Made by a program: the position numbers and the translations under genes. A DNA stretch of 24,439 bases from the NCBI GenBank assembly GCA_041161415.1, contig JBEAUN010000327.1, positions 1 through 24,439 of the forward strand, read 5' to 3'. The DNA is from Pseudomonadota bacterium. GTDB lineage: Bacteria > Pseudomonadota > Gammaproteobacteria > Burkholderiales > Rhodocyclaceae. The notes below the pieces were generated by a model, which was given only the letters and a program-made list of their open reading frames with translations, made no database searches and was not told the DNA's origin. Shown one piece after another: positions 422 to 11,518 of this stretch; positions within the stretch are counted from its first letter, which is position 1; the number at the start of each line of letters is the position of its first letter.

Positions 422-2233
422 ATGAATTTCACCGAGCTTGCCAGTTTCATCTGGTCCGTTGCAGACCTGCTTCGAGGCGATTACAAACAGGCCGATTACG
501 GCAAAGTCATTCTGCCTTTCACGCTGCTGCGGCGGCTGGATTGCGTGTTGGCACCCACACGCGACGAAGTGCGCGAGGAATACGCCAAACGAAAAGACAG
601 CGGGGTGGTGCTCGACCCCATCCTGAAACGCAAAAGCCGGGAGGCGTTTTACAACGTGAGCCCCTTCACGTTGTCCGGCTTGTTGTCGGACCCGGCGCAT
701 ATCCGCCAGAACCTCGTTGCTTATGTTTCGGATTTTTCCGCCGATGCGCGGGATATCTTCGAGCGTTTCAAATTCATCGAACGCGTGGGCGAGCTGGACG
801 AGAAAAATCTGCTTTTCATGCTTGTTCAGAGATTTTCAGCGGTCGACCTTCACCCGGCGTCGGTGCCGAATGAAACGATGGGGCTGGTGTTTGAAGAACT
901 CATCCGGAAATTTGCTGAAGCCTCCAACGAAACAGCCGGGGAGCACTTCACCCCGCGCGAGGTTATCAAGCTCATCGTGCATTGCCTGTTCGCCGGTGAC
1001 GATGAGGCGCTGGCTAAACCCGGTGTGGTGCGCTCGATGTATGACCCCACCGCCGGGACGGGTGGCATTCTTTCCGTGGGCGAGGCCGTGACCCGCGAAA
1101 TCAATGGGTCTGCCAAGCTGGTGCTGTTCGGTCAAGAGCTCAACGACGAGTCCTATGCCATTTGCAAAGCCGACATGCTCATCAAAGGGCAGGACCCTAA
1201 AAACATGGTCCGGGGCAACACCCTTTCGCAAGACGGTTTCCCCGGCGAGAAATTCGACTACTGCGCCGCCAACCCGCCCTTCGGTGTGGACTGGAAAAAA
1301 GTGCAGGACATCGTCAAGGCAGAGCACGACAAGAAAGGTTACGGCGGTCGCTTCGGCCCGGGGCTGCCGCGTGTCTCCGATGGCTCGCTGTTATTTCTGC
1401 TGCACCTCATTTCGAAAATGCGCCCGCCCGCCGAGGGTGGCGGACGGATTGGCATTGTATTGAACGGCTCACCGCTATTCACGGGCGATGCCGGCTCCGG
1501 CGAATCGGAAATCCGGCGCTGGATTCTCGAAAATGACTTGCTCGATGCCATCATCGCCCTGCCCAACGACCTGTTTTACAACACCGGGATTGCGACTTAC
1601 ATCTGGTTGCTCGACAACGACAAACCCGCCGTGCGCCGACACAAGGTGCAGCTCATCGATGCCACGCGGATGTACGCAAAGATGAAAAAGAGCCTGGGCA
1701 ACAAGCGGGTTTTTCTCACCGACGAACAAATCGACGAGGTGGTGAAGGTCTACGCCGGGTTTCATGATGAGGCGCGGTTTGCGCTCGAATTCCGCGAGGC
1801 CGGCAGCGACAAATCCGCCACCGCGCCGGGTGAGGAGGCAAGGGTGGTGTCGAAGATATTCGGCACCGGGTTCTTCGGTTACCGGAAGGTCACAGTCGAC
1901 CGCCCACCGGCTCCGGGGAGCGAGGTGACGGTCAAACTCAAGAAGGGCCAGCGCCCCTACGACCCGGCGTTGCGGGACACCGAGAACATTCCGCTCGGCG
2001 AGGATGTCGACGCCTACATGGCGCGGGAAGTCCTGCCGCATGTGCCGGATGCTTACGTCAATGCCGATGTGCGGGATGAGAAGGATGGCAGGGTGGGCAA
2101 GGTGGGGTATGAAATCAATTTCAACCGGTATTTCTACGTCTACAAACCGCCACGGCCACCGCAGGTGATTGCGGAGGAAATTCGGGAGATGGAGAAGCGG
2201 TTTTTGGAGTTGATGAAAGAGATGATGCTGTGA
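422..2233 (+). CDS. hsdM: Type I restriction-modification methyltransferase subunit M (N6-adenine)
   Basis: 603 aa. HsdM N-terminus (FIWSVADLLRGDYKQADYGKVILPFTLLRRLD), SAM-binding motif YDPTAGTGG, catalytic NPPF, GEHFTPRE motif. Confidence 0.97.
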   Translation: MNFTELASFIWSVADLLRGDYKQADYGKVILPFTLLRRLDCVLAPTRDEVREEYAKRKDSGVVLDPILKRKSREAFYNVSPFTLSGLLSDPAHIRQNLVAYVSDFSADARDIFERFKFIERVGELDEKNLLFMLVQRFSAVDLHPASVPNETMGLVFEELIRKFAEASNETAGEHFTPREVIKLIVHCLFAGDDEALAKPGVVRSMYDPTAGTGGILSVGEAVTREINGSAKLVLFGQELNDESYAICKADMLIKGQDPKNMVRGNTLSQDGFPGEKFDYCAANPPFGVDWKKVQDIVKAEHDKKGYGGRFGPGLPRVSDGSLLFLLHLISKMRPPAEGGGRIGIVLNGSPLFTGDAGSGESEIRRWILENDLLDAIIALPNDLFYNTGIATYIWLLDNDKPAVRRHKVQLIDATRMYAKMKKSLGNKRVFLTDEQIDEVVKVYAGFHDEARFALEFREAGSDKSATAPGEEARVVSKIFGTGFFGYRKVTVDRPPAPGSEVTVKLKKGQRPYDPALRDTENIPLGEDVDAYMAREVLPHVPDAYVNADVRDEKDGRVGKVGYEINFNRYFYVYKPPRPPQVIAEEIREMEKRFLELMKEMML

Positions 2234-3555
2234 GTGACGCCGACAATGTACGGCGATTGAAATACGCCATCGAGGGTTGCATAAACGGAGTCTGGGGGGA
2301 TGAGCCCAACGGAATAGATGACATCATCGTGGTTCGTGTTGCGGACTTCGACCGGGCTAGAGGCGCGGTAACTCTTGGTGACTCCCCGACCATCCGGGCA
2401 ATCCCGGATTCAGCGCGCAATCGCAGAACCCTTAGGTCAGGGGATTTGCTGATTGAGAAGTCGGGAGGCGGAGAACAGCAACCCGTCGGCAACGTAGTAC
2501 TGTTCAATGACGAGCGCAAGGCTGTCTGCTCCAACTTCGTCGCCAGGATGGCAGTTGCTGAAGAATGCGACAGCCGTTTTGTGGCGTACTCCTTCCACTC
2601 TCTCTACGCAGAGGGAAGAAATATTCCGCATATCAAGCAGACGTCGGGTATCCAGAACCTAGACTCCGAAAGCTACTTTAACGAGCGGGCCTGGTTGCCT
2701 GAAAAAGCTCAACAAGTCCGTATCGCCAACTTCCTCGACGAGCAGACAGCGCGTATTGATACGTTGATTGCAGAGAAGGAGCGATTGGCCGTATGCGTAC
2801 GTGAATTTGAACAAGGAAAAATATCCGAGCTCGTAACCTACGGGGTTCGCGTAGAAGCTTTACGAAAGACGGGCAATGCATTTGTGCCAGCAGCACCTTG
2901 TACCTGGCGAGTTGCTGCCTTTAAGCGTGCCCTGGTTGATATGGACCAAGGCTGGAGTCCGCAATGTGAGAGCCGACCCGCTGACAGCAGTGAGTGGGGC
3001 GTGCTGAAGGTAGGTTGTGTGAATGGCGTTCGCTTCGACGCAACCGAAAACAAGGCCCTACCTTCTGAACTTGCGCCTGACTTATCTTGTTTGATTCGTA
3101 AAGGAGATGTGTTGGTCTCACGAGCCAATACAAGAGAACTCGTCGGACTCGCTGCCATGGTCGATTCGGACTACCCCAATCTGCTCCTATGCGACAAGCT
3201 GTACCGATTGAAATTGCGACCTGACTGGGTGCTTCCAGCATTCAGCATATTGCTACTGCGTTCGGGTTCAGTTCGTCGCCAAGTTGAGCTCGGAGCGAGC
3301 GGGGCGAGTTCATCGATGCAGAACATTTCCCAGGATGTTATTCGGGAGCTTGTTGTAGCCTTACCGCCACTCGAAGAGCAGCAGCAGATTGTCATCTTGG
3401 CGGAGCGTATCCGCCAGTCTTGTGGTGGGTTGCGCGCGCATGTGGCTCAGCACATCTCTCGCCTCCGCGAATACCGCTCCTCCCTGATTTCAGCCGCCGT
3501 CACCGGCCAGCTGAATCTCGATGACCACACCCACACCCGGCGCGAGGTGGCCTGA
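2230..3555 (+). CDS. hsdS: Type I restriction-modification specificity subunit S (two TRDs)
   Basis: 441 aa. GTG start overlaps the hsdM stop (GTGA). Two TRD-like halves, each followed by a conserved helical region (LPEKAQQVRIANFLDEQTARIDTLI; LPPLEEQQQIV...LREYRSSLISAAVTGQL). Confidence 0.95.
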   Translation: MSDADNVRRLKYAIEGCINGVWGDEPNGIDDIIVVRVADFDRARGAVTLGDSPTIRAIPDSARNRRTLRSGDLLIEKSGGGEQQPVGNVVLFNDERKAVCSNFVARMAVAEECDSRFVAYSFHSLYAEGRNIPHIKQTSGIQNLDSESYFNERAWLPEKAQQVRIANFLDEQTARIDTLIAEKERLAVCVREFEQGKISELVTYGVRVEALRKTGNAFVPAAPCTWRVAAFKRALVDMDQGWSPQCESRPADSSEWGVLKVGCVNGVRFDATENKALPSELAPDLSCLIRKGDVLVSRANTRELVGLAAMVDSDYPNLLLCDKLYRLKLRPDWVLPAFSILLLRSGSVRRQVELGASGASSSMQNISQDVIRELVVALPPLEEQQQIVILAERIRQSCGGLRAHVAQHISRLREYRSSLISAAVTGQLNLDDHTHTRREVA

Positions 3556-3557
3556 CC

Positions 3558-4418
3558 ATGCGGCCACAAACCATCCAGATTTTCTTGCCCGCTGGCGACC
3601 CGCGCGGTGTGCGTGTGGCTGAAATCACCACCCGCATCGTGCGCGTGATTGAAGTGCCGCGCAGTCTGCTTGCGGATTTCCTCGACATGCCGGAATCACA
3701 ACAACCGGGGCTGTATTACCTGGTGGGCGGTGCTGGGGAGGGTGAAACCGCTCAGCTGTATATCGGTCAAAGCGGCTCGGTGGGGGGGCGTCTGGGCCAG
3801 CAAAACCAGAGCCGTGATTTCTGGAACCGGGCGCTGGTGGTGGTTTCCTTGACCAACAGCATCACGCAGACACATGTGCTGTTTCTGGAATGGCTGGCCA
3901 TCAAGGAGGCGCTCGCGGCGGAGCGCTATGCGCTGGAAAACGGAAACAACGGCGCCCGCCCTCACACCCCCGCTCCGCTGGAAGCGGACTGTCTTGAAAT
4001 TCATGAGACCGCCCGCACCCTGCTCGCCACGCTGGGCTACCCGGTATTCGAGCCCGTCGCGCGGCCTTCCGAGCGGGATGACAACGAGATATTGTTCTGC
4101 AAATCTTCCGGCGCCCAAGGCAGCGGGGTCTACACCTCGGAAGGGTTCGTGGTGCTCAAGGGGTCGATTGGACGGCTGGACAGCGTGCCCTCAATCGTTG
4201 GCACGGCCGGCGGCAAGCTGCGCCAGCGCTTGCTTGATGCCGGCGTGATGCGCGCGGAAGGGGCCACTGTGGTTTTCGAGAAAGACCATCTTTTCCGCTC
4301 GCCGAGCATGGCGGGGCTGGCCCTGATGGGGCGCACCTGCAATGGCTGGCTGGATTGGAAGGACGCGAGCGGCAGGACGCTGAATGAATTGAAGCGGCAG
4401 CCGAGCGCATCAAGCTAA
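3558..4418 (+). CDS. GIY-YIG nuclease-family protein with a C-terminal DUF4357-like domain
   Basis: 286 aa. GLYYLVG...LYIGQS...RL...DFW...FLE...ENGN matches the GIY-YIG layout. C-terminal FRSPSMAGLALMGRTCNGWLDWKDASGRTL matches the DUF4357 pattern (F.SPS.A....G...NGW..WK...G.TL). Starts 2 nt after the hsdS stop. Confidence 0.8.
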   Translation: MRPQTIQIFLPAGDPRGVRVAEITTRIVRVIEVPRSLLADFLDMPESQQPGLYYLVGGAGEGETAQLYIGQSGSVGGRLGQQNQSRDFWNRALVVVSLTNSITQTHVLFLEWLAIKEALAAERYALENGNNGARPHTPAPLEADCLEIHETARTLLATLGYPVFEPVARPSERDDNEILFCKSSGAQGSGVYTSEGFVVLKGSIGRLDSVPSIVGTAGGKLRQRLLDAGVMRAEGATVVFEKDHLFRSPSMAGLALMGRTCNGWLDWKDASGRTLNELKRQPSASS

Positions 4419-4451
4419 GCGGTACCCCTCCAACCATCGCATAGGTGACCC

Positions 4452-7400
4452 GTGCCCAAGCTGACAAACGTGCATACCGAAAAGGTGTTCGAGGACGAGC
4501 TCTGTGCGCACCTCGCGGCGAACCAATGGGTGGTGCGCACCCACCTGAAAGACGCGACGTCCTATGACCGCGAGCTGGCGATTTTCCCGGATGACCTGCT
4601 GGCTTTTGTTCAGGCTACGCAGTCGGAGGAGTGGGCCAAATTCCGCAAGTGGCACAACGGGGATGCCGAGCAGGTATTCATCAAGCGCGTCGCCCAGCAG
4701 CTGGATAAACACGGCACGCTACATGTGCTGCGCAATGGCTTCAAAGACCGGGACGCGAAATTTGTGTTGTGCCAATTTCGGCCGGCGCATCAGAAAAATC
4801 CCACGCTGTGGGAAGCCTACAAACAGAATCGTTTGACAGTCATCCGGCAGCTGCATTACAGCCTGCACAACGAAAACAGCATCGACCTGGTGTTATTCGT
4901 GAATGGTCTGCCGGTGGCGACGAGCGAGCTGAAAACGGACCTTACGCAAAACATCCGGGATGCGATTGTTCAGTACAAAAAAGACCGTCAACCCAGGGAC
5001 ACGAAAACCAAGCAGCCTGAGCCGCTGTTGGAGTTCAAAACGCGAGCACTGGTGCATTTTGCGGTGTCGACGGATGAGGTGTTCATGACGACGCAGCTGA
5101 AGGGAGAAAAAACTTTTTTTCTGCCCTTCAATCAGGGGCGCCCCGACGGCTTTGGCGGCGCCACCAGTGGCAACCCGCCCGCGCCGCTGGAGATAGGTTA
5201 CCCGACCGGATACCTTTGGCACTGGGTGTGGCACCGGGATGTATGGCTCGACATTCTCGGAAATTTTTTGCACCTCGAGAAAAAGGAGGTCGAGGACCCC
5301 AAGACCGGTGCAAAGAGCATCAAGGAAACGCTGATTTTTCCGCGCTTTCACCAGCTGGATGTGGTGCTGCGCTTGGTTCGGGCCGCCGCCGAAGAGGGCA
5401 CGGGCAAGACCTGGCTGGTGCAGCATTCGGCGGGCTCCGGGAAATCGAATTCGATTGCCTGGACGGCCCATCGGCTTGCCAATCTGCACAACGCCCGGGA
5501 TGAAAAGGTTTTCAATTCGGTGATTGTCATCACTGACCGCAAGGTTCTCGACCGCCAGTTGCAGGAAACCATCAGCCAGTTCGAGCACAAGGCGGGCGTG
5601 GTGCAAAAAATCGACCGGAACAGTCAGCAGCTTGCGGATGCGCTGAATGACGGCGCGCCGATTATCGTGACCACACTCCAGAAGTTTCCGAATGTGCTGG
5701 AAAAGGTGACCGCCCTTAAGAAACGCAACTTCGCACTCATCATTGACGAGGCCCACTCAAGCCAATCCGGTTCCGTCGCGCAGAAACTGCGCAAGGCGCT
5801 CACCACGGGCGATGGCAGTGCGCCAGCATTTTCTGCGGAGCTGGACGCGACGGACTACCAGATTGAACAGCGCTTCGATTTTGACCCGGATAGTGTGACG
5901 GCCGAGGATGTCATCAATCAGGTGATTTCTGCACGCAAGCGGCCGGACAATGTCAGCTACTTCGCCTTCACCGCAACGCCCAAGGCCAAGACCTTGGAGC
6001 TGTTTGGCCGCAAGGGGCCTGACGGGCTGCCCGAACCCTTCCATGTTTATTCGATGCGGCAGGCCATCGACGAGGGATTCATCCTTGATGTACTGAAGCA
6101 CTACATCTCATACAAGGCTTATTACAAGCTCGGCTCGGCGTCTGAATCGAAGCTGGTGCCTGCGGGGCGAGCCAAGAAAACGCTGGCGCGTTACGCGGCC
6201 TTGCATGCATACAACATCGCCCAGAAAGTGGTGGTGATTGTCGAGCACTTCCGGGAGTTCGTGGCCCACAGGATTGGCGGATGCGCGAAGGCGATGGTGG
6301 TGACCGACAGCCGGGTCTCGGCGGTACGCTACAAACTCGCGATGGATAAATACATCAAGGAGCGCGGGTATCAGAACCTGAAAACACTGGTCGCATTTTC
6401 AGGAAAAGTGTCGGACCTTGAATCCGGACCGGATGATTTCACTGAGGCGAACATGAATCCCGGAGTCAGCGGCGAGCCCTCCGAGGCGTTCAAGGGCGAT
6501 GATTTTCGCCTGCTTCTGGTGGCCAATAAATATCAGACGGGTTTCGACCAGCCATTGCTGCACACCATGTACGTGGACAAGCGCTTGTCGGGGGTGCTGG
6601 CAGTGCAAACTCTGTCGCGCCTGAATCGAACATGCGCGGGCAAGGACGACACATTCGTGCTCGATTTTGTCAATAAGCCCGAGGAGATACTGGAGAGCTT
6701 TCTGCCCTATTACCGCAGTGCGCGGCTGGAGGGTGAAACGGACCCGAATATCGTCCATGAGTTGCAGCTGAAGCTGGATAAGTCAGGTGTGTATTACCCC
6801 GCGGAAGTGGAGGCTTTTGCGGAGGCTTTCTTTGACCCGAAACGAAAGCAATCTACCCTGCATGGCTTCCTCAAACCGGCTGCGGACCGTTTCTTCGAAT
6901 TATCCGAGGAAGAGGCCGACCAGTTCAGGAAAGACCTGGGGGCATTCCTTCGTTTGTATGATTTCCTGTCCCAAATCGTGCCTTACGAGGATACGGACCT
7001 TGAAAAGCGCTACGCCTTCGGAAAAATTCTGATGCCGCGTATCACAGAGGGCACCGGCTCGAGCATCCTGGAGCTGGATTCTGATGTTCGCCTGACCCAT
7101 TACCGGCTACAAAAGCTCGGGGAGCAGCAACTGAAACTTGAGAGCGGGGAGCAGGTGACCCTCGCACCAGTGACCGAGGCTGGCAGCGGCAAAGCGCGCG
7201 AGGATGAGATGGCGCCGCTTTCTGAAATCGTCGAAAAAATGAACGACCTGTTCGCCGGCGGCGTGACCGAGGCGGACGCGCTGGGAACGCTCACTGCGTG
7301 GTCCGGCCATCTGCTGAAGAATGAAAAACTGGCCGACCAGGCAAAAAACAATTCGCTTGAGCAGTTTGTGCTGGGCGACTTCAAAGAGATTTTCACGGAT

Positions 7401-7550
7401 GTGGTACTGGAATCGCAGGATGGGCACAACAAGATAGCCAACCAGTTGCTAAAGGATGAACGCATCTTCGCCGCCATGCAGGAGATGCTGGCGCAGATGG
7501 TCTACTCGGCTTTTCGGCGGGATAACGCCTCTTCGGGTAGCGGGGTGTAG
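4452..7550 (+). CDS. hsdR: Type I restriction endonuclease subunit R
   Basis: 1032 aa, GTG start. Nuclease motif DLVLFVNGLPVATSELK, Walker A QHSAGSGKS, DEAH box, FTATP, QTGFDQP and QTLSRLNR helicase motifs. Confidence 0.97.
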   Translation: MPKLTNVHTEKVFEDELCAHLAANQWVVRTHLKDATSYDRELAIFPDDLLAFVQATQSEEWAKFRKWHNGDAEQVFIKRVAQQLDKHGTLHVLRNGFKDRDAKFVLCQFRPAHQKNPTLWEAYKQNRLTVIRQLHYSLHNENSIDLVLFVNGLPVATSELKTDLTQNIRDAIVQYKKDRQPRDTKTKQPEPLLEFKTRALVHFAVSTDEVFMTTQLKGEKTFFLPFNQGRPDGFGGATSGNPPAPLEIGYPTGYLWHWVWHRDVWLDILGNFLHLEKKEVEDPKTGAKSIKETLIFPRFHQLDVVLRLVRAAAEEGTGKTWLVQHSAGSGKSNSIAWTAHRLANLHNARDEKVFNSVIVITDRKVLDRQLQETISQFEHKAGVVQKIDRNSQQLADALNDGAPIIVTTLQKFPNVLEKVTALKKRNFALIIDEAHSSQSGSVAQKLRKALTTGDGSAPAFSAELDATDYQIEQRFDFDPDSVTAEDVINQVISARKRPDNVSYFAFTATPKAKTLELFGRKGPDGLPEPFHVYSMRQAIDEGFILDVLKHYISYKAYYKLGSASESKLVPAGRAKKTLARYAALHAYNIAQKVVVIVEHFREFVAHRIGGCAKAMVVTDSRVSAVRYKLAMDKYIKERGYQNLKTLVAFSGKVSDLESGPDDFTEANMNPGVSGEPSEAFKGDDFRLLLVANKYQTGFDQPLLHTMYVDKRLSGVLAVQTLSRLNRTCAGKDDTFVLDFVNKPEEILESFLPYYRSARLEGETDPNIVHELQLKLDKSGVYYPAEVEAFAEAFFDPKRKQSTLHGFLKPAADRFFELSEEEADQFRKDLGAFLRLYDFLSQIVPYEDTDLEKRYAFGKILMPRITEGTGSSILELDSDVRLTHYRLQKLGEQQLKLESGEQVTLAPVTEAGSGKAREDEMAPLSEIVEKMNDLFAGGVTEADALGTLTAWSGHLLKNEKLADQAKNNSLEQFVLGDFKEIFTDVVLESQDGHNKIANQLLKDERIFAAMQEMLAQMVYSAFRRDNASSGSGV

Positions 7551-7639
7551 CGGGTTCTTGCAAACCTGCCGGCTGTGTTGATAACGCGCTTTGCGCTACC
7601 ATCCGGGCATAGGTCAATAAACAATCCACGCGCAACAAA

Positions 7640-8743
7640 GTGAAGACAGCATTCATCAGACCAAGATTCGTCGGCGAGCGTTTTGACGAACACTCGATAC
7701 CCTTGGAGGTCTTGAAAGACTGGGCGGGTATCGAGACGCTTGTCGTCGAGACGGCCAAATGGCTCTATCGACAGGAGCACCAAGGGCGCGTGCGCGTGCC
7801 GCGTGGTTTTGCGGACGGCTTCGCACTGCATTTGTCCGCGATTGGTGAAGGCAGCGCAGTCGCCGTGCTTGACAGAACCAGTGGTGGGGACCTGTTTCCA
7901 GATGTCTATGCCGAGTGGTTTGACAAGGCGAGAGACCGTATTTTCGAGGTGATTCGAGCGGCGGCAAATGGCCTGACCACCGACGGACTGCTCCCGAATC
8001 AGCTGTTGTCCCTTTTCGATAAATTCGGCCGGTCGCTGCGCGAGTCAGAGCAAGTCGAGTTTTCTCTGGGCGACGGCGGTGTCGTCAAATACGATGCGCG
8101 CATCCGCAAGACGCTGGTCTTGAAAACGGCGTCGGAATATCGCACCGAGGAGCAGCTGCGCGGCGAGATTTCCCTGGTGGACGCCGAGCGCCTGACGCTG
8201 ACACTCAAACTTTTGAATGGCCGCAAGATTTCGGGCCCCTTCCCACGGGAATTGCGCGAGCAGGCTGTTGATGCCTTGTCGAATTTCGGAGAGTCTCCCG
8301 TGCTTGTTGACTGCGTGGTTGTCCGTGACCACTCGGACAACCTGAAGCAGCTGGAGAGCATCTCCAGAATTGAGCCCCTGGACCCGCTGGATGTGCCCGC
8401 TCGCCTTGAAAGTCTGGCGCAGCTTGCCGATGGGTGGCTTGACCGGGCGGGCTTGGCGCTATCCCCGGGGGGGGGCACTTGGCTAAGCCATGCGTGGCTC
8501 AACCACTTCCCCAAAAATGCACCCCTGCCTTATCTGTACGCAACGCCAGAAGGCGGCGTTCAGGCGGAGTGGGACCTTGATTCGGTTTCGATTCAACTGG
8601 AAATCGACTTGGCGAAAAAGTCTGGCGTCCTGCTCATGTCCTCGAAGGGGACGGGTGAGCTTCAATCCGAGCGGGTTTTGAATCTGGATTCGATTGACGG
8701 TTGGAGAGCCTTGACGGCTGCCTTGGGGCAATCGGGGCAGTGA
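7640..8743 (+). CDS. Hypothetical multi-domain protein (367 aa); candidate antitoxin or sensor partner of the downstream gene
   Basis: Long ORF with GTG start, 89 nt after hsdR on the same strand, and 1 nt from the next ORF. No family recognised with certainty. Confidence 0.85.
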   Translation: MKTAFIRPRFVGERFDEHSIPLEVLKDWAGIETLVVETAKWLYRQEHQGRVRVPRGFADGFALHLSAIGEGSAVAVLDRTSGGDLFPDVYAEWFDKARDRIFEVIRAAANGLTTDGLLPNQLLSLFDKFGRSLRESEQVEFSLGDGGVVKYDARIRKTLVLKTASEYRTEEQLRGEISLVDAERLTLTLKLLNGRKISGPFPRELREQAVDALSNFGESPVLVDCVVVRDHSDNLKQLESISRIEPLDPLDVPARLESLAQLADGWLDRAGLALSPGGGTWLSHAWLNHFPKNAPLPYLYATPEGGVQAEWDLDSVSIQLEIDLAKKSGVLLMSSKGTGELQSERVLNLDSIDGWRALTAALGQSGQ

Positions 8744-8744
8744 C

Positions 8745-9140
8745 ATGGCAGAGAAAGAGCATCTTCTGCTCAGGCAGGTGAATCCTGCCTGGGTGCAAAA
8801 CGGGCGAATTTCCAGCCAGACCTTCACCCCGACACCAAAGGATGACCGCCTGTTGTCAGTCGACGACGGGCGCCTTGTGGAACCGGAGCAAAGTCACGCT
8901 CATTTCACCGGCACGCGTGGCCTGAAATCCATGGGAGTGGTTGCAGTGGCGAATTTGGAGGTGGCGGAGGCTGGCCTTGCCTGGCGACCCGACCCGCTGC
9001 CAGACTCGGCCACTCATGCAGTCATCGACTTTTCCCAACTGGTGTCGAACGGCCAAATCAAGGCCAAGGCATCATGGCTAGCTGAAAAGGCTCGTGCCCG
9101 GGGATGGCTGTTTCAGCCGCCGGCAGAAGAGCCAGTCTGA
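8745..9140 (+). CDS. Hypothetical protein (131 aa), possible Tse2-like/ADP-ribosyltransferase-fold toxin
   Basis: ATG 1 nt after the upstream TGA. Pattern LLLR10QV...SSQTF...LS38VD...GVVAV...DP...H91AVI. The CDS is well supported; the fold assignment is inference. Confidence 0.75.
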   Translation: MAEKEHLLLRQVNPAWVQNGRISSQTFTPTPKDDRLLSVDDGRLVEPEQSHAHFTGTRGLKSMGVVAVANLEVAEAGLAWRPDPLPDSATHAVIDFSQLVSNGQIKAKASWLAEKARARGWLFQPPAEEPV

Positions 9141-9311: not shown

Positions 9312-9331
9312 GAGTCCCCCCATCACCACCA
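9312..9331 (+). other. att-like core: isolated 3' end of a tRNA (not an intact tRNA gene)
   Basis: GAGT-CCCCC-CATCACC-A-CCA fits tRNA positions 57-76 exactly (T-loop end, 5-nt T-stem strand, 7-nt acceptor strand, discriminator, CCA). No 5' tRNA body lies upstream. The cognate tRNA should begin GGTGATG. Confidence 0.75.
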
Positions 9332-9335
9332 GTCT

Positions 9336-9373
9336 CAAACAAAAGGCCAACCTTCGGGTTGGCCTTTTGTTTG
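9336..9373. terminator. Rho-independent, probably bidirectional terminator
   Basis: Perfect 17-bp inverted repeat CAAACAAAAGGCCAACC / GGTTGGCCTTTTGTTTG with a C-UUCG-G tetraloop, 4 nt after the tRNA-like CCA. Confidence 0.9.
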
Positions 9374-9383
9374 TCCGCCGCCG

Positions 9384-9454
9384 TGTAGCCACCATCTAGC
9401 CAAATTCAGCCATTTGGCGTGTCGCTTGCCCAACCTGAGGCCTCACCCCGCCGG
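9384..9454 (+). repeat. Direct repeat copy B (partner at 1-72)
   Basis: Direct alignment with 1-72. Ends in CACCCCGCCGG, which recurs at 9936-9946. Confidence 0.95.
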
Positions 9455-9502: not shown

Positions 9503-10497
9503 TCACGCTTTCCCCCTCGCCTGGCCCGGTGCGAGCATGTTTTCAATCAAGCGAATCATCGCCTCTTTGTTCTTGGCGTCAGACTCCGCCACCAGCAGCG
9601 CCAATGCAGCAAGGCCTACGTCGTTGATGATGGGCTCACCATCGTGCAGCAGTCGATCATTGCGTGCGAGAAAATCCACGAAAAGGAATGCCCCGGTACG
9701 TTTGTTGCCGTCGGAGAAGGGATGGTTTTTGATGACGAAATACAAAAGATGCGCGGCCTTGGTCTCGATGGTGGGATAGGCCGGCTCGCCAAAAACCGTC
9801 TGCTCCAAATTGCCCAAAATCCCCGCGAAGGCCTCGCCACGCTGACGCCCAAATAAATCGGTGGCCTCGCCGCGTGCCATCAAGTCGGCTTTGAGCCGGG
9901 CGATGCCGGCAAGCGCTTAATCCAGAGGGGAGCAGCACCCCGCCGGGGCTGCCGGCAGGCACGCTCAGCAACCCTTCGTCATAGCGTTGCAACCAGAGAA
10001 AGGTTTGCGTGTAACGGGCGATCACATCGACCAGCCCACGCCCCTTGGTCGGTGGTCAGTGTCTCACCTGCGGCAGCCTTCTTCACCAGTTGCAGTGCGG
10101 CTTCCAGCTCGGCGGCGTTTTGCTCGAAACGCTGGCGATTAAGGGTGTAGCCCTGCATGAGATGCTCGCGCAAAATGCGCGTGGCCCACTGGCGAAAGCG
10201 GGTGGCTTGTACCGACTTGACGCGATAGCCCACAGAGATGATTGCGTCGAGGTTGTAGTGCTCAACCTGATAGATTTTCCCGTCCGCGGCAGTATGTGCA
10301 AATTTTGCACACACTGAATCGCGCTCCAGTTCGCCCTCCGCAAAGACATTGCGGATGTGCTTGGTAATGACCGAGCGATCACGCCCAACAAGCACCGTCA
10401 TTTGTTCCTGAGTCAGCCAAACCGTGTCGCCTTGAAGCCGCACCTCCACCTGTCCAGTGCCTGCTTCAAAAATGATCAGCTGCTGTTGCTCGGTCAT
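9503..10497 (-). pseudogene. RhuM-family/Fic-Doc fusion protein, disrupted by two frameshifts and a nonsense codon
   Basis: ATG at 10497 with GAGG upstream. RhuM-like N-terminus (TVWLTQEQM...YNLDAIISVGYRVKS..ATRFRQWA) and Doc-type Fic motif HPFSDGNKRTG, spread over three reading frames (ORFs 9979-10563, 9657-10025, 9503-9883). Confidence 0.9.
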
Positions 10498-10846
10498 GGT
10501 GTGATCCTCATCAAAAAATCTTGGCATCTGCCGCGCGACGTGCTTCTGAACAAAAGGGGCCAACCCCCGCTATGCAGTGATCAGCCCACGGCGGCATCAT
10601 CCACCATCCAATACTTCAACTCAACGACAACGTAATCGCTGGCCAGGACAATACCGGCAGACAAACCGCGTAGCCAAAACGTAGCGGCGCCCATTCACAG
10701 CAAGGCTATGCGAGACTGGTTGCCGCCACGTTGCAACTTGGCGCGCGCTGCCCATCCCCTCTCAAAAGATCATTCGAACCTTTCCGCCAGGCTTGCGTCT
10801 AAGGCCTTTTACTTTTTGCGCCGCTTGCTGGCAAGGCATTGAAAAC

Positions 10847-11518
10847 ATGCTCATTCACCGCCACCCACCGCCTCATTTCGCGCAGGATCCGATCGAGACT
10901 GCGGGGCTTGATGACCTGCGGGCTGCCTTTTATGCCCCCTCGCCGCACCCCTCTTCCCACGTTTATCGCGCTGCGGTGATGTATCTGCCGGTCAATCCAG
11001 GCAATCTGCATGGCCTCGCGCTGTATCTCACGCGCGATCCCCAGACACAAAAGATGTGGGAAGTCGCGCGCCGCCTGGGTGATGCTGCCCGGCACCTGGG
11101 TCACCTGCGGCGTTTTGCTGATGACCCCTGCCATGCCGATCGTCTGATCCATACGCTCAATCGACACAGCGAGCGGCTCACCCGCATTGCCCAGTTAAAA
11201 GCGGTGGATCAACTTCGCCGCCACGCTGCTGCGCGCCAGCATCCTTTCGATTCGCAAGGGGTGCTGTATTTCACAACACTCACCGACCCCTTGCATGTGG
11301 CGAAAACGATGCTTGAGCCTAGTTGGGCAAGGATGATGGAGGGGAAATTCGGGGCTCGCGCGGGCTATTACCTGCGGGCCAGTCTGGCTTCTTTATCGGT
11401 GCGCTCGATTAAGGATCTCTTGGCGCTCAACCGATCGCTGGGGCCGGGTGCGCCGGAGGAATCCCCCTTGCGTCACATCAGCGCGCATCTTGGCCAAGAC
11501 GCTGCGCAGCTTCCTTGA
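10847..11518 (+). CDS. Hypothetical protein (possibly the N-terminal part of a frameshifted gene extending to 11807)
   Basis: Open frame from ATG 10847 (MLIHRHPPP...). No family recognised. Confidence 0.6.
   Translation: MLIHRHPPPHFAQDPIETAGLDDLRAAFYAPSPHPSSHVYRAAVMYLPVNPGNLHGLALYLTRDPQTQKMWEVARRLGDAARHLGHLRRFADDPCHADRLIHTLNRHSERLTRIAQLKAVDQLRRHAAARQHPFDSQGVLYFTTLTDPLHVAKTMLEPSWARMMEGKFGARAGYYLRASLASLSVRSIKDLLALNRSLGPGAPEESPLRHISAHLGQDAAQLP

Follow-up and report, generated by a model that had tools for sequence, protein, structure and literature searches.

Positions 7640-9140 of a 24,439-nucleotide stretch of DNA from a Pseudomonadota bacterium of the Rhodocyclaceae (contig JBEAUN010000327.1, forward strand; hereafter the window) hold two adjacent genes, A and B, which we assign to PDC-M32, a candidate defence system listed in the PADLOC database. 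Our reading, to which we give a probability of roughly 0.55, is that the pair is a member of this candidate system, appended here to a type I restriction-modification (RM) operon, and that it works through a small effector, B, kept in check by its larger partner, A. An earlier note made from the sequence alone (the original prediction) had presented the same two open reading frames (ORFs) as an undescribed toxin-antitoxin (TA) or defence system whose effector has a Tse2-like ADP-ribosyltransferase (ART) fold. Its observations were confirmed, and its interpretation was partly supported: a conserved, translationally coupled two-gene module with TA-like logic in a defence-island context stands, but the claims of novelty and of an ART fold fared less well, as described below.

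The coordinates of the pair were confirmed by reading of the sequence. ORF A (7640-8743, + strand) starts with GTG and encodes 367 residues, and ORF B (8745-9140, + strand) starts with ATG and encodes 131. The two are 1 nt apart, with the TGA stop codon of A at 8741-8743 and a single base, 8744, before the ATG of B. In a search against PADLOC-DB v2, A matched the PDC-M32A hidden Markov model (PDLC04574) with an E-value of 2.6e-121, residues 2-363 aligning to profile positions 2-369 of 376, and B matched that of PDC-M32B (PDLC04579) with an E-value of 1.4e-43, residues 4-124 aligning to positions 3-121 of 123. The sequence features of PDC-M32 membership are found here: full-length matches to both profiles, adjacency, a shared strand and the order A then B. 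Since both matches are full length, the pair is not undescribed, a PADLOC match being what the original prediction had itself named beforehand as refuting that claim; what the window carries is an ordinary copy of the listed candidate. Each protein also belongs to a PHROG family (30544 for A, E 3e-49; 31579 for B, E 6e-32), and neither matched Pfam or NCBIfam (for B, nothing at E ≤ 1). PDC-M32 corresponds to cassette CAS_00128, with a count of 98, from a "guilt-by-embedding" prediction that yielded 145 candidates in loci for restriction and other defences; the same study did not assay it, and it is a candidate by prediction (Payne, Hughes, Fineran & Jackson 2024, bioRxiv 10.1101/2024.01.29.577857). 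PADLOC hits to PDC-M32 in Sinorhizobium prophages appear in one other paper. Compared with PDC-M32 as listed in PADLOC-DB v2, the window pair has the same gene order and the same association with type I RM genes, but lies after hsdR and not between hsd genes.

At least 300 relatives of A were present in the database, and a profile of B reached 1440 clusters at 50% identity (E ≤ 1e-3). These relatives span many phyla, including Proteobacteria, Planctomycetota, Acidobacteriota and Verrucomicrobiota, which indicates that both ORFs are genuine genes. No second copy of B was found in the window's own genome. When loci were sampled through A, 77 of the 80 genomes, from many phyla, had B immediately after A and in the same orientation, in agreement with the proposed co-occurrence of the two genes. 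B was broken in three loci (L038, L042 and L062; L numbers denote individual loci) and absent in two (L036 and L064), and one locus stopped at the end of its contig. Across homologous loci, the start of B coincided with the end of the A frame or lay close to it. When loci were sampled through B, the C-terminal domain of A (about residues 245-367; 8372-8740, + strand; hereafter the C-domain) was found directly upstream in all 13 viral contigs from IMG/VR, and at least this domain was directly upstream in all 76 metagenome loci with enough upstream sequence, so that none of the 89 evaluable B-sampled loci had a B without it. The same arrangement was seen in L122, L125, L127 and L211, and even where A was fragmented (L127) or had lost its N-terminal part (L125 and L119), an ORF for the C-domain still preceded an intact B. 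The C-domain did occur without B, as 123-residue genes in L123, L126 and L209, as a gene in L210 and as full-length A in L036 and L064. The coupling of A and B is obligate, the C-domain is the smallest part of A that partners B, and orphans exist for the holder and not for B. The asymmetry agrees with A acting as an antitoxin-like holder and B as a toxin-like effector, and a coupled two-gene operon with orphans only of the putative antitoxin is also what marks type II TA systems.

The C-domain behaves as a module that is found in several architectures. A search with residues 245-367 of A alone retrieved proteins of 120-200 residues, many of them of 120-130, at E-values from 1e-20 to 1e-12. In L122, hsdM and hsdS enclose a 143-residue mini-A and, after it, B; in this mini-A, residues ~25-250 are missing and the N-terminal ~22 residues run straight into the C-domain. 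ORFs that consist of the C-domain only, followed by B, were found in L158, L167, L178, L193 and L211/L212. In L124, a Phd/YefM antitoxin DNA-binding domain (PF02604, E 1.8e-11) is fused to the C-domain and the B frame starts at the stop codon of the fusion, and in L120/L121 a Zn-ribbon-like N-terminus precedes the C-domain upstream of B. Finally, L140 (2-3375) encodes at least 999 residues of a type III restriction enzyme (PADLOC REase_III, E 1e-13) that ends in the C-domain, its last ~120 residues, and is followed by B. The same layout was found in L137 (3-3375), where the large frame has one in-frame stop.

Two side observations concern such loci. In L123, L126 and L209, the C-domain-only gene (3001-3372 in each) overlaps both the stop codon of hsdM and the start of hsdS in a type I RM operon that contains no B; these genes may be orphan antitoxins or RM accessories. 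Beside the truncated A and the B of L125, positions 4021-5053 encode a 157-residue membrane-like protein and a protein with a ThsB_TIR domain, which may represent an adjoining defence system.

The putative toxin B carries a set of near-invariant polar residues that, judging from its conservation, looks like an active site. Among 151 representatives that are mutually less than 50% identical, R10 (145/147), S38 (150/151) and H91 (148/150), the three residues singled out by the original prediction, were near-invariant together with Q11, F27 and G64, and S24, D33, S62, E72, D95 and R119 were strongly conserved. The translation contains the motifs it had listed (LLLR10, SSQTF, LS38VD, GVVAV and H91AVI). 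An AlphaFold model of B from 78 sequences (mean predicted local distance difference test score, pLDDT, 90.5; predicted template modelling score, pTM, 0.82) places R10 within strand 7-12, S38 within strand 36-41, GVVAV within strand 64-69 and H91 at the start of strand 91-95; R10, S38 and H91 thereby occupy the first, second and fifth main strands. A Foldseek search of the PDB with this model returned no significant match (best E 0.25, template modelling (TM) score 0.2), and a search of BFVD returned none either, just one unnamed 149-residue viral protein (E 0.026, TM 0.49). Pfam searches with 78 homologues of B and 52 of A at E ≤ 10 gave no recurrent family, and sequence and profile searches of the PDB, including one with the 78-sequence profile of B, gave noise only. 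Longer homologues of B (150-223 residues) had neither a Pfam domain nor an A-like segment, and low-complexity sequence or wrongly called starts seem to account for their extensions. Its invariant residues are enzyme-like, yet no neighbour of B in fold or family could be detected in the PDB, BFVD or Pfam.

The AlphaFold model of A, the proposed holder and sensor, was likewise confident (pLDDT 90.7) and shows three parts. The N-terminal region (about residues 1-135; 7640-8044, + strand), delimited from the secondary structure of the model (DSSP) and the conservation of the alignment, consists of a β-hairpin followed by a helical/β module, with many conserved charged residues and an FDxxGRxLR motif. 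It is followed by a central OB-fold-like barrel (about residues 167-246; 8138-8377, + strand; coordinates inferred from the DSSP topology), in which the order β1-β2-β3-helix-β4-β5 is that of an OB fold. The only high-probability matches of A in a Foldseek search of the PDB were local ones to the small OB-fold proteins IF1, SilF, RPA and OBody (probability ~1.0, E ~1e-2, TM on target 0.5-0.68), and nothing matched the N- and C-terminal domains. The C-domain itself is modelled as a helix, a five-strand meander and a second helix.

The surroundings of the pair point to defence. At least 16 of the 80 genome loci sampled through A are flanked by hsdM on one side and by hsdS or hsdR on the other, all on the same strand. 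An hsd homologue was found within 8 kb in 28 of the 80 genome loci and within 3 kb in 15 of 80 metagenome loci. The hsd search under-counts because the window's own Hsd proteins were the only queries. Copies of PDC-M32 are also carried on viral and prophage contigs, and in the window the pair shares its neighbourhood with two further PADLOC candidates, PDC-S14 and PDC-S23.

Obligate pairing, the C-domain as minimal partner and orphans of the holder only lead us to infer that the C-domain silences B, that the remainder of A senses and that B acts. A and B would be made together by translational coupling, and the C-domain would bind B and keep it inactive. The rest of A, that is, the N-terminal module and the OB-fold-like barrel, or whichever module replaces them, would then serve as an exchangeable infection sensor. 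Phage infection would be the trigger, perhaps through phage nucleic acid, a phage protein or the failure of a neighbouring restriction enzyme, and the triggered sensor would let B act on its target and stop the infected cell. As a small enzyme-like effector, B would draw its active site from R10, Q11, S24, S38, E72, H91 and D95. The fusion to a Phd/YefM domain is the best pointer to antitoxin logic. A bolder form of this proposal, which we put forward tentatively and regard as possible but on balance unlikely, is that B founds a new enzyme fold among defence effectors and that the ~120-residue C-domain is a portable holder or adaptor, plugging B into OB-fold, Phd/YefM, Zn-ribbon-like and type III or type I restriction sensors. 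If it were true, restriction enzymes would gain a built-in abortive-infection back-up.

Several points weigh against the assignment of these roles. More than half of the loci do not adjoin recognisable restriction genes. The sampling of B relied on the N-terminal motifs that are most conserved in it and kept the best 80 loci, so that distant B proteins with other partners would escape. The Phd/YefM fusion comes from a single 1.5-kb metagenome contig, in which B has an in-frame TAG, and B is frameshifted in the Zn-ribbon variant. Moreover, the asymmetry of orphans would look the same if the C-domain were an adaptor for the folding or targeting of B and not an inhibitor. Our literature searches returned no experiment on PDC-M32, and the one further paper they found to name it does so solely as a PADLOC hit.

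Other explanations of the pair differ from the effector/holder reading either in the chemistry of B or in the purpose of the module. The original prediction took B for a minimal ART-fold toxin of the Tse2/RES kind that uses nicotinamide adenine dinucleotide (NAD), with an R10-S38-H91 triad, that ADP-ribosylates a target or degrades NAD+ and is neutralised by A. ARTs of the R-S-E and H-Y-E types carry their catalytic residues on successive strands, and the near-invariant R10, S38 and H91 of B are placed in a similar way, on the first two strands and at the beginning of the fifth; E72, too, is strongly conserved. Like B, the ART-fold toxins Tse2 (PF18648), RES (PF08808) and CmdT of CmdTAC are small and have conserved Arg/Ser/His(Glu) residues on successive strands, but they show no similarity to B in sequence, profile or Foldseek searches. 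With a model as confident as that of B, no ART-fold protein (Tse2, RES, ParT, DarT, Arr or other) was among the 50 best Foldseek matches in the PDB, there was no ART among the BFVD matches, and an ART fold with its split β-sheet was not detected. None of the 78 B homologues matched an ART-clan Pfam family even at E ≤ 10. A search for DUF952 among the relatives yielded no sequences for comparison. With hhalign, the B family scored 0.5-0.6% against a 20-sequence RES alignment and at most 0.2% against an 8-sequence alignment of the Tse2 family, both built from genome hits; since the control of RES against Tse2 was equally negative (0.2%), this test excludes membership and not fold, and profile methods do often miss ART families given their divergence. 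At 125-131 residues, B is also shorter than the Pfam models of RES (157 positions) and Tse2 (137 positions). The one pointer to NAD use by B is thus the residue pattern, and we consider this reading improbable. The original prediction was right that the pair is not a complete CmdTAC system: CmdTAC comprises three genes, for an ART toxin, an antitoxin and a SecB-like chaperone, whereas here two genes precede a terminator-like hairpin, with no PADLOC match to CmdTAC in the pair and no SecB-like chaperone gene following it in the window.

The second group of explanations concerns what the module is for. In type I RM loci, an embedded effector held by the restriction enzyme has a precedent in PrrC, which is held by EcoprrI. 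By analogy, the C-domain could dock on HsdM/HsdS of a type I enzyme or Res of a type III enzyme, and a phage anti-restriction protein that disables the enzyme would release B as a back-up effector. Like PDC-M32, PrrC/EcoprrI and other embedded effectors of this kind have their gene in or beside the operon of a type I RM system, and guarding is conceivable here too, but they are unrelated to PDC-M32 in sequence and fold, and PDC-M32 comprises two genes that often lie away from RM genes. Such guarding would account for the C-domain-only genes that, in L123, L126 and L209 independently, overlap the end of hsdM and the beginning of hsdS, the mini-A and B placed between hsdM and hsdS (L122), the type III Res that ends in the C-domain and has B behind it (L140), the many full cassettes within hsd operons and the position of the window copy after hsdR with no terminator between. 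However, 52 of the 80 genome loci and all 13 viral contigs had no hsd homologue near the pair, an over-count of absences given the queries used. The module thus works without a linked restriction enzyme in most loci, for which reason we rank the guard model second and regard it as unlikely. Still less probable, in our view, is that the pair is a selfish addiction (TA) module that stabilises islands and prophages, with phage defence being incidental. The TA-like asymmetry and the Phd/YefM fusion would agree with addiction, as would the location on prophages and mobile islands and the frequent decay of the genes (B broken in L038, L042 and L062, A broken in L127 and L138). Type II TA systems of the Phd/YefM type resemble PDC-M32 in having a first gene followed by a small coupled second gene, with orphans of the first partner only, and one natural fusion joins their DNA-binding domain to the C-domain of A upstream of B. 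A, on the other hand, has 367 residues with sensor-like modules and no recognisable DNA-binding domain, and Doc, YoeB and RelE are unrelated to B by sequence or fold. A plain antitoxin would not usually be a large sensor-like protein that contains an OB-fold-like barrel, and the repeated insertion into restriction operons and the fusion to a restriction enzyme suggest a role linked to defence. The effector/holder reading remains the one we prefer.

In the window, the pair is preceded by a type I RM operon (422-7550, + strand; Pfam and PADLOC) that comprises hsdM (422-2233), hsdS (2230-3555), an embedded PDC-S14/DUF4357 gene (3558-4418) and hsdR (4452-7550), all on the + strand. HsdR has 1032 residues and the Pfam domains HSDR_N, SWI2_SNF2, ResIII and T1R_D3-like. 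The original prediction had given the pair an 89-nt leader of its own. The spacer between the hsdR stop codon and the start of A is indeed 89 nt long (7551-7639, + strand), but a consensus scan found in it neither a sigma-70-like promoter nor a terminator, which gives a separate leader no support and makes co-transcription of the pair with hsdR equally possible; the pair may be expressed by read-through from hsdR. Downstream, a bidirectional terminator-like hairpin at about 9336-9373 closes the hsd/PDC-M32 transcription unit. RNA folding of 9325-9385 gave a 17-bp stem with a 4-nt loop and a folding free energy of -28.7 kcal/mol (z -5.6), none of 200 shuffled sequences folded equally well, and the stem is flanked by A runs on its 5' side and T runs on its 3' side. 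Beyond the hairpin lies a convergent RhuM-Fic gene on the - strand (9503-10563; PADLOC PDC-S23, S23/S05), which is interrupted by a frame change. The pair therefore does not lie at the end of the island, where it had been placed.

The neighbouring genes offered some further observations. The RhuM-Fic gene is split into two ORFs (9979-10563 and 9503-9883), and an intact homologue of 365 residues (L032) aligns to the window in frame -1 and then in frame -3, which makes the window copy either a frameshifted pseudogene or an assembly error. Past it, a 241-residue ORF (10793-11518, + strand) had no Pfam, PHROG or PADLOC match. The 286-residue gene in the interval between hsdS and hsdR (3558-4418, + strand) matched PDC-S14 (E 1e-101) and PHROG 12629 and carries a C-terminal DUF4357; it is a second embedded defence candidate within the same RM operon. 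The C-terminal tail of HsdR (residues 953-1013; 7308-7490) showed a weak match to the PADLOC candidate PDC-S15 (E 2.3e-7). No tRNA genes were found in the window.

The analysis narrows PDC-M32, one of many catalogued defence candidates, to a testable core, ~120 residues of A plus B. What is new here is this reduced core, the failure to detect any protein close to B in fold, and the finding that the C-domain is fused in nature both to the DNA-binding domain of an antitoxin and to a type III restriction enzyme. If the proposed roles were confirmed, PDC-M32 would bring an effector with a new chemistry and would link restriction physically to abortive infection.
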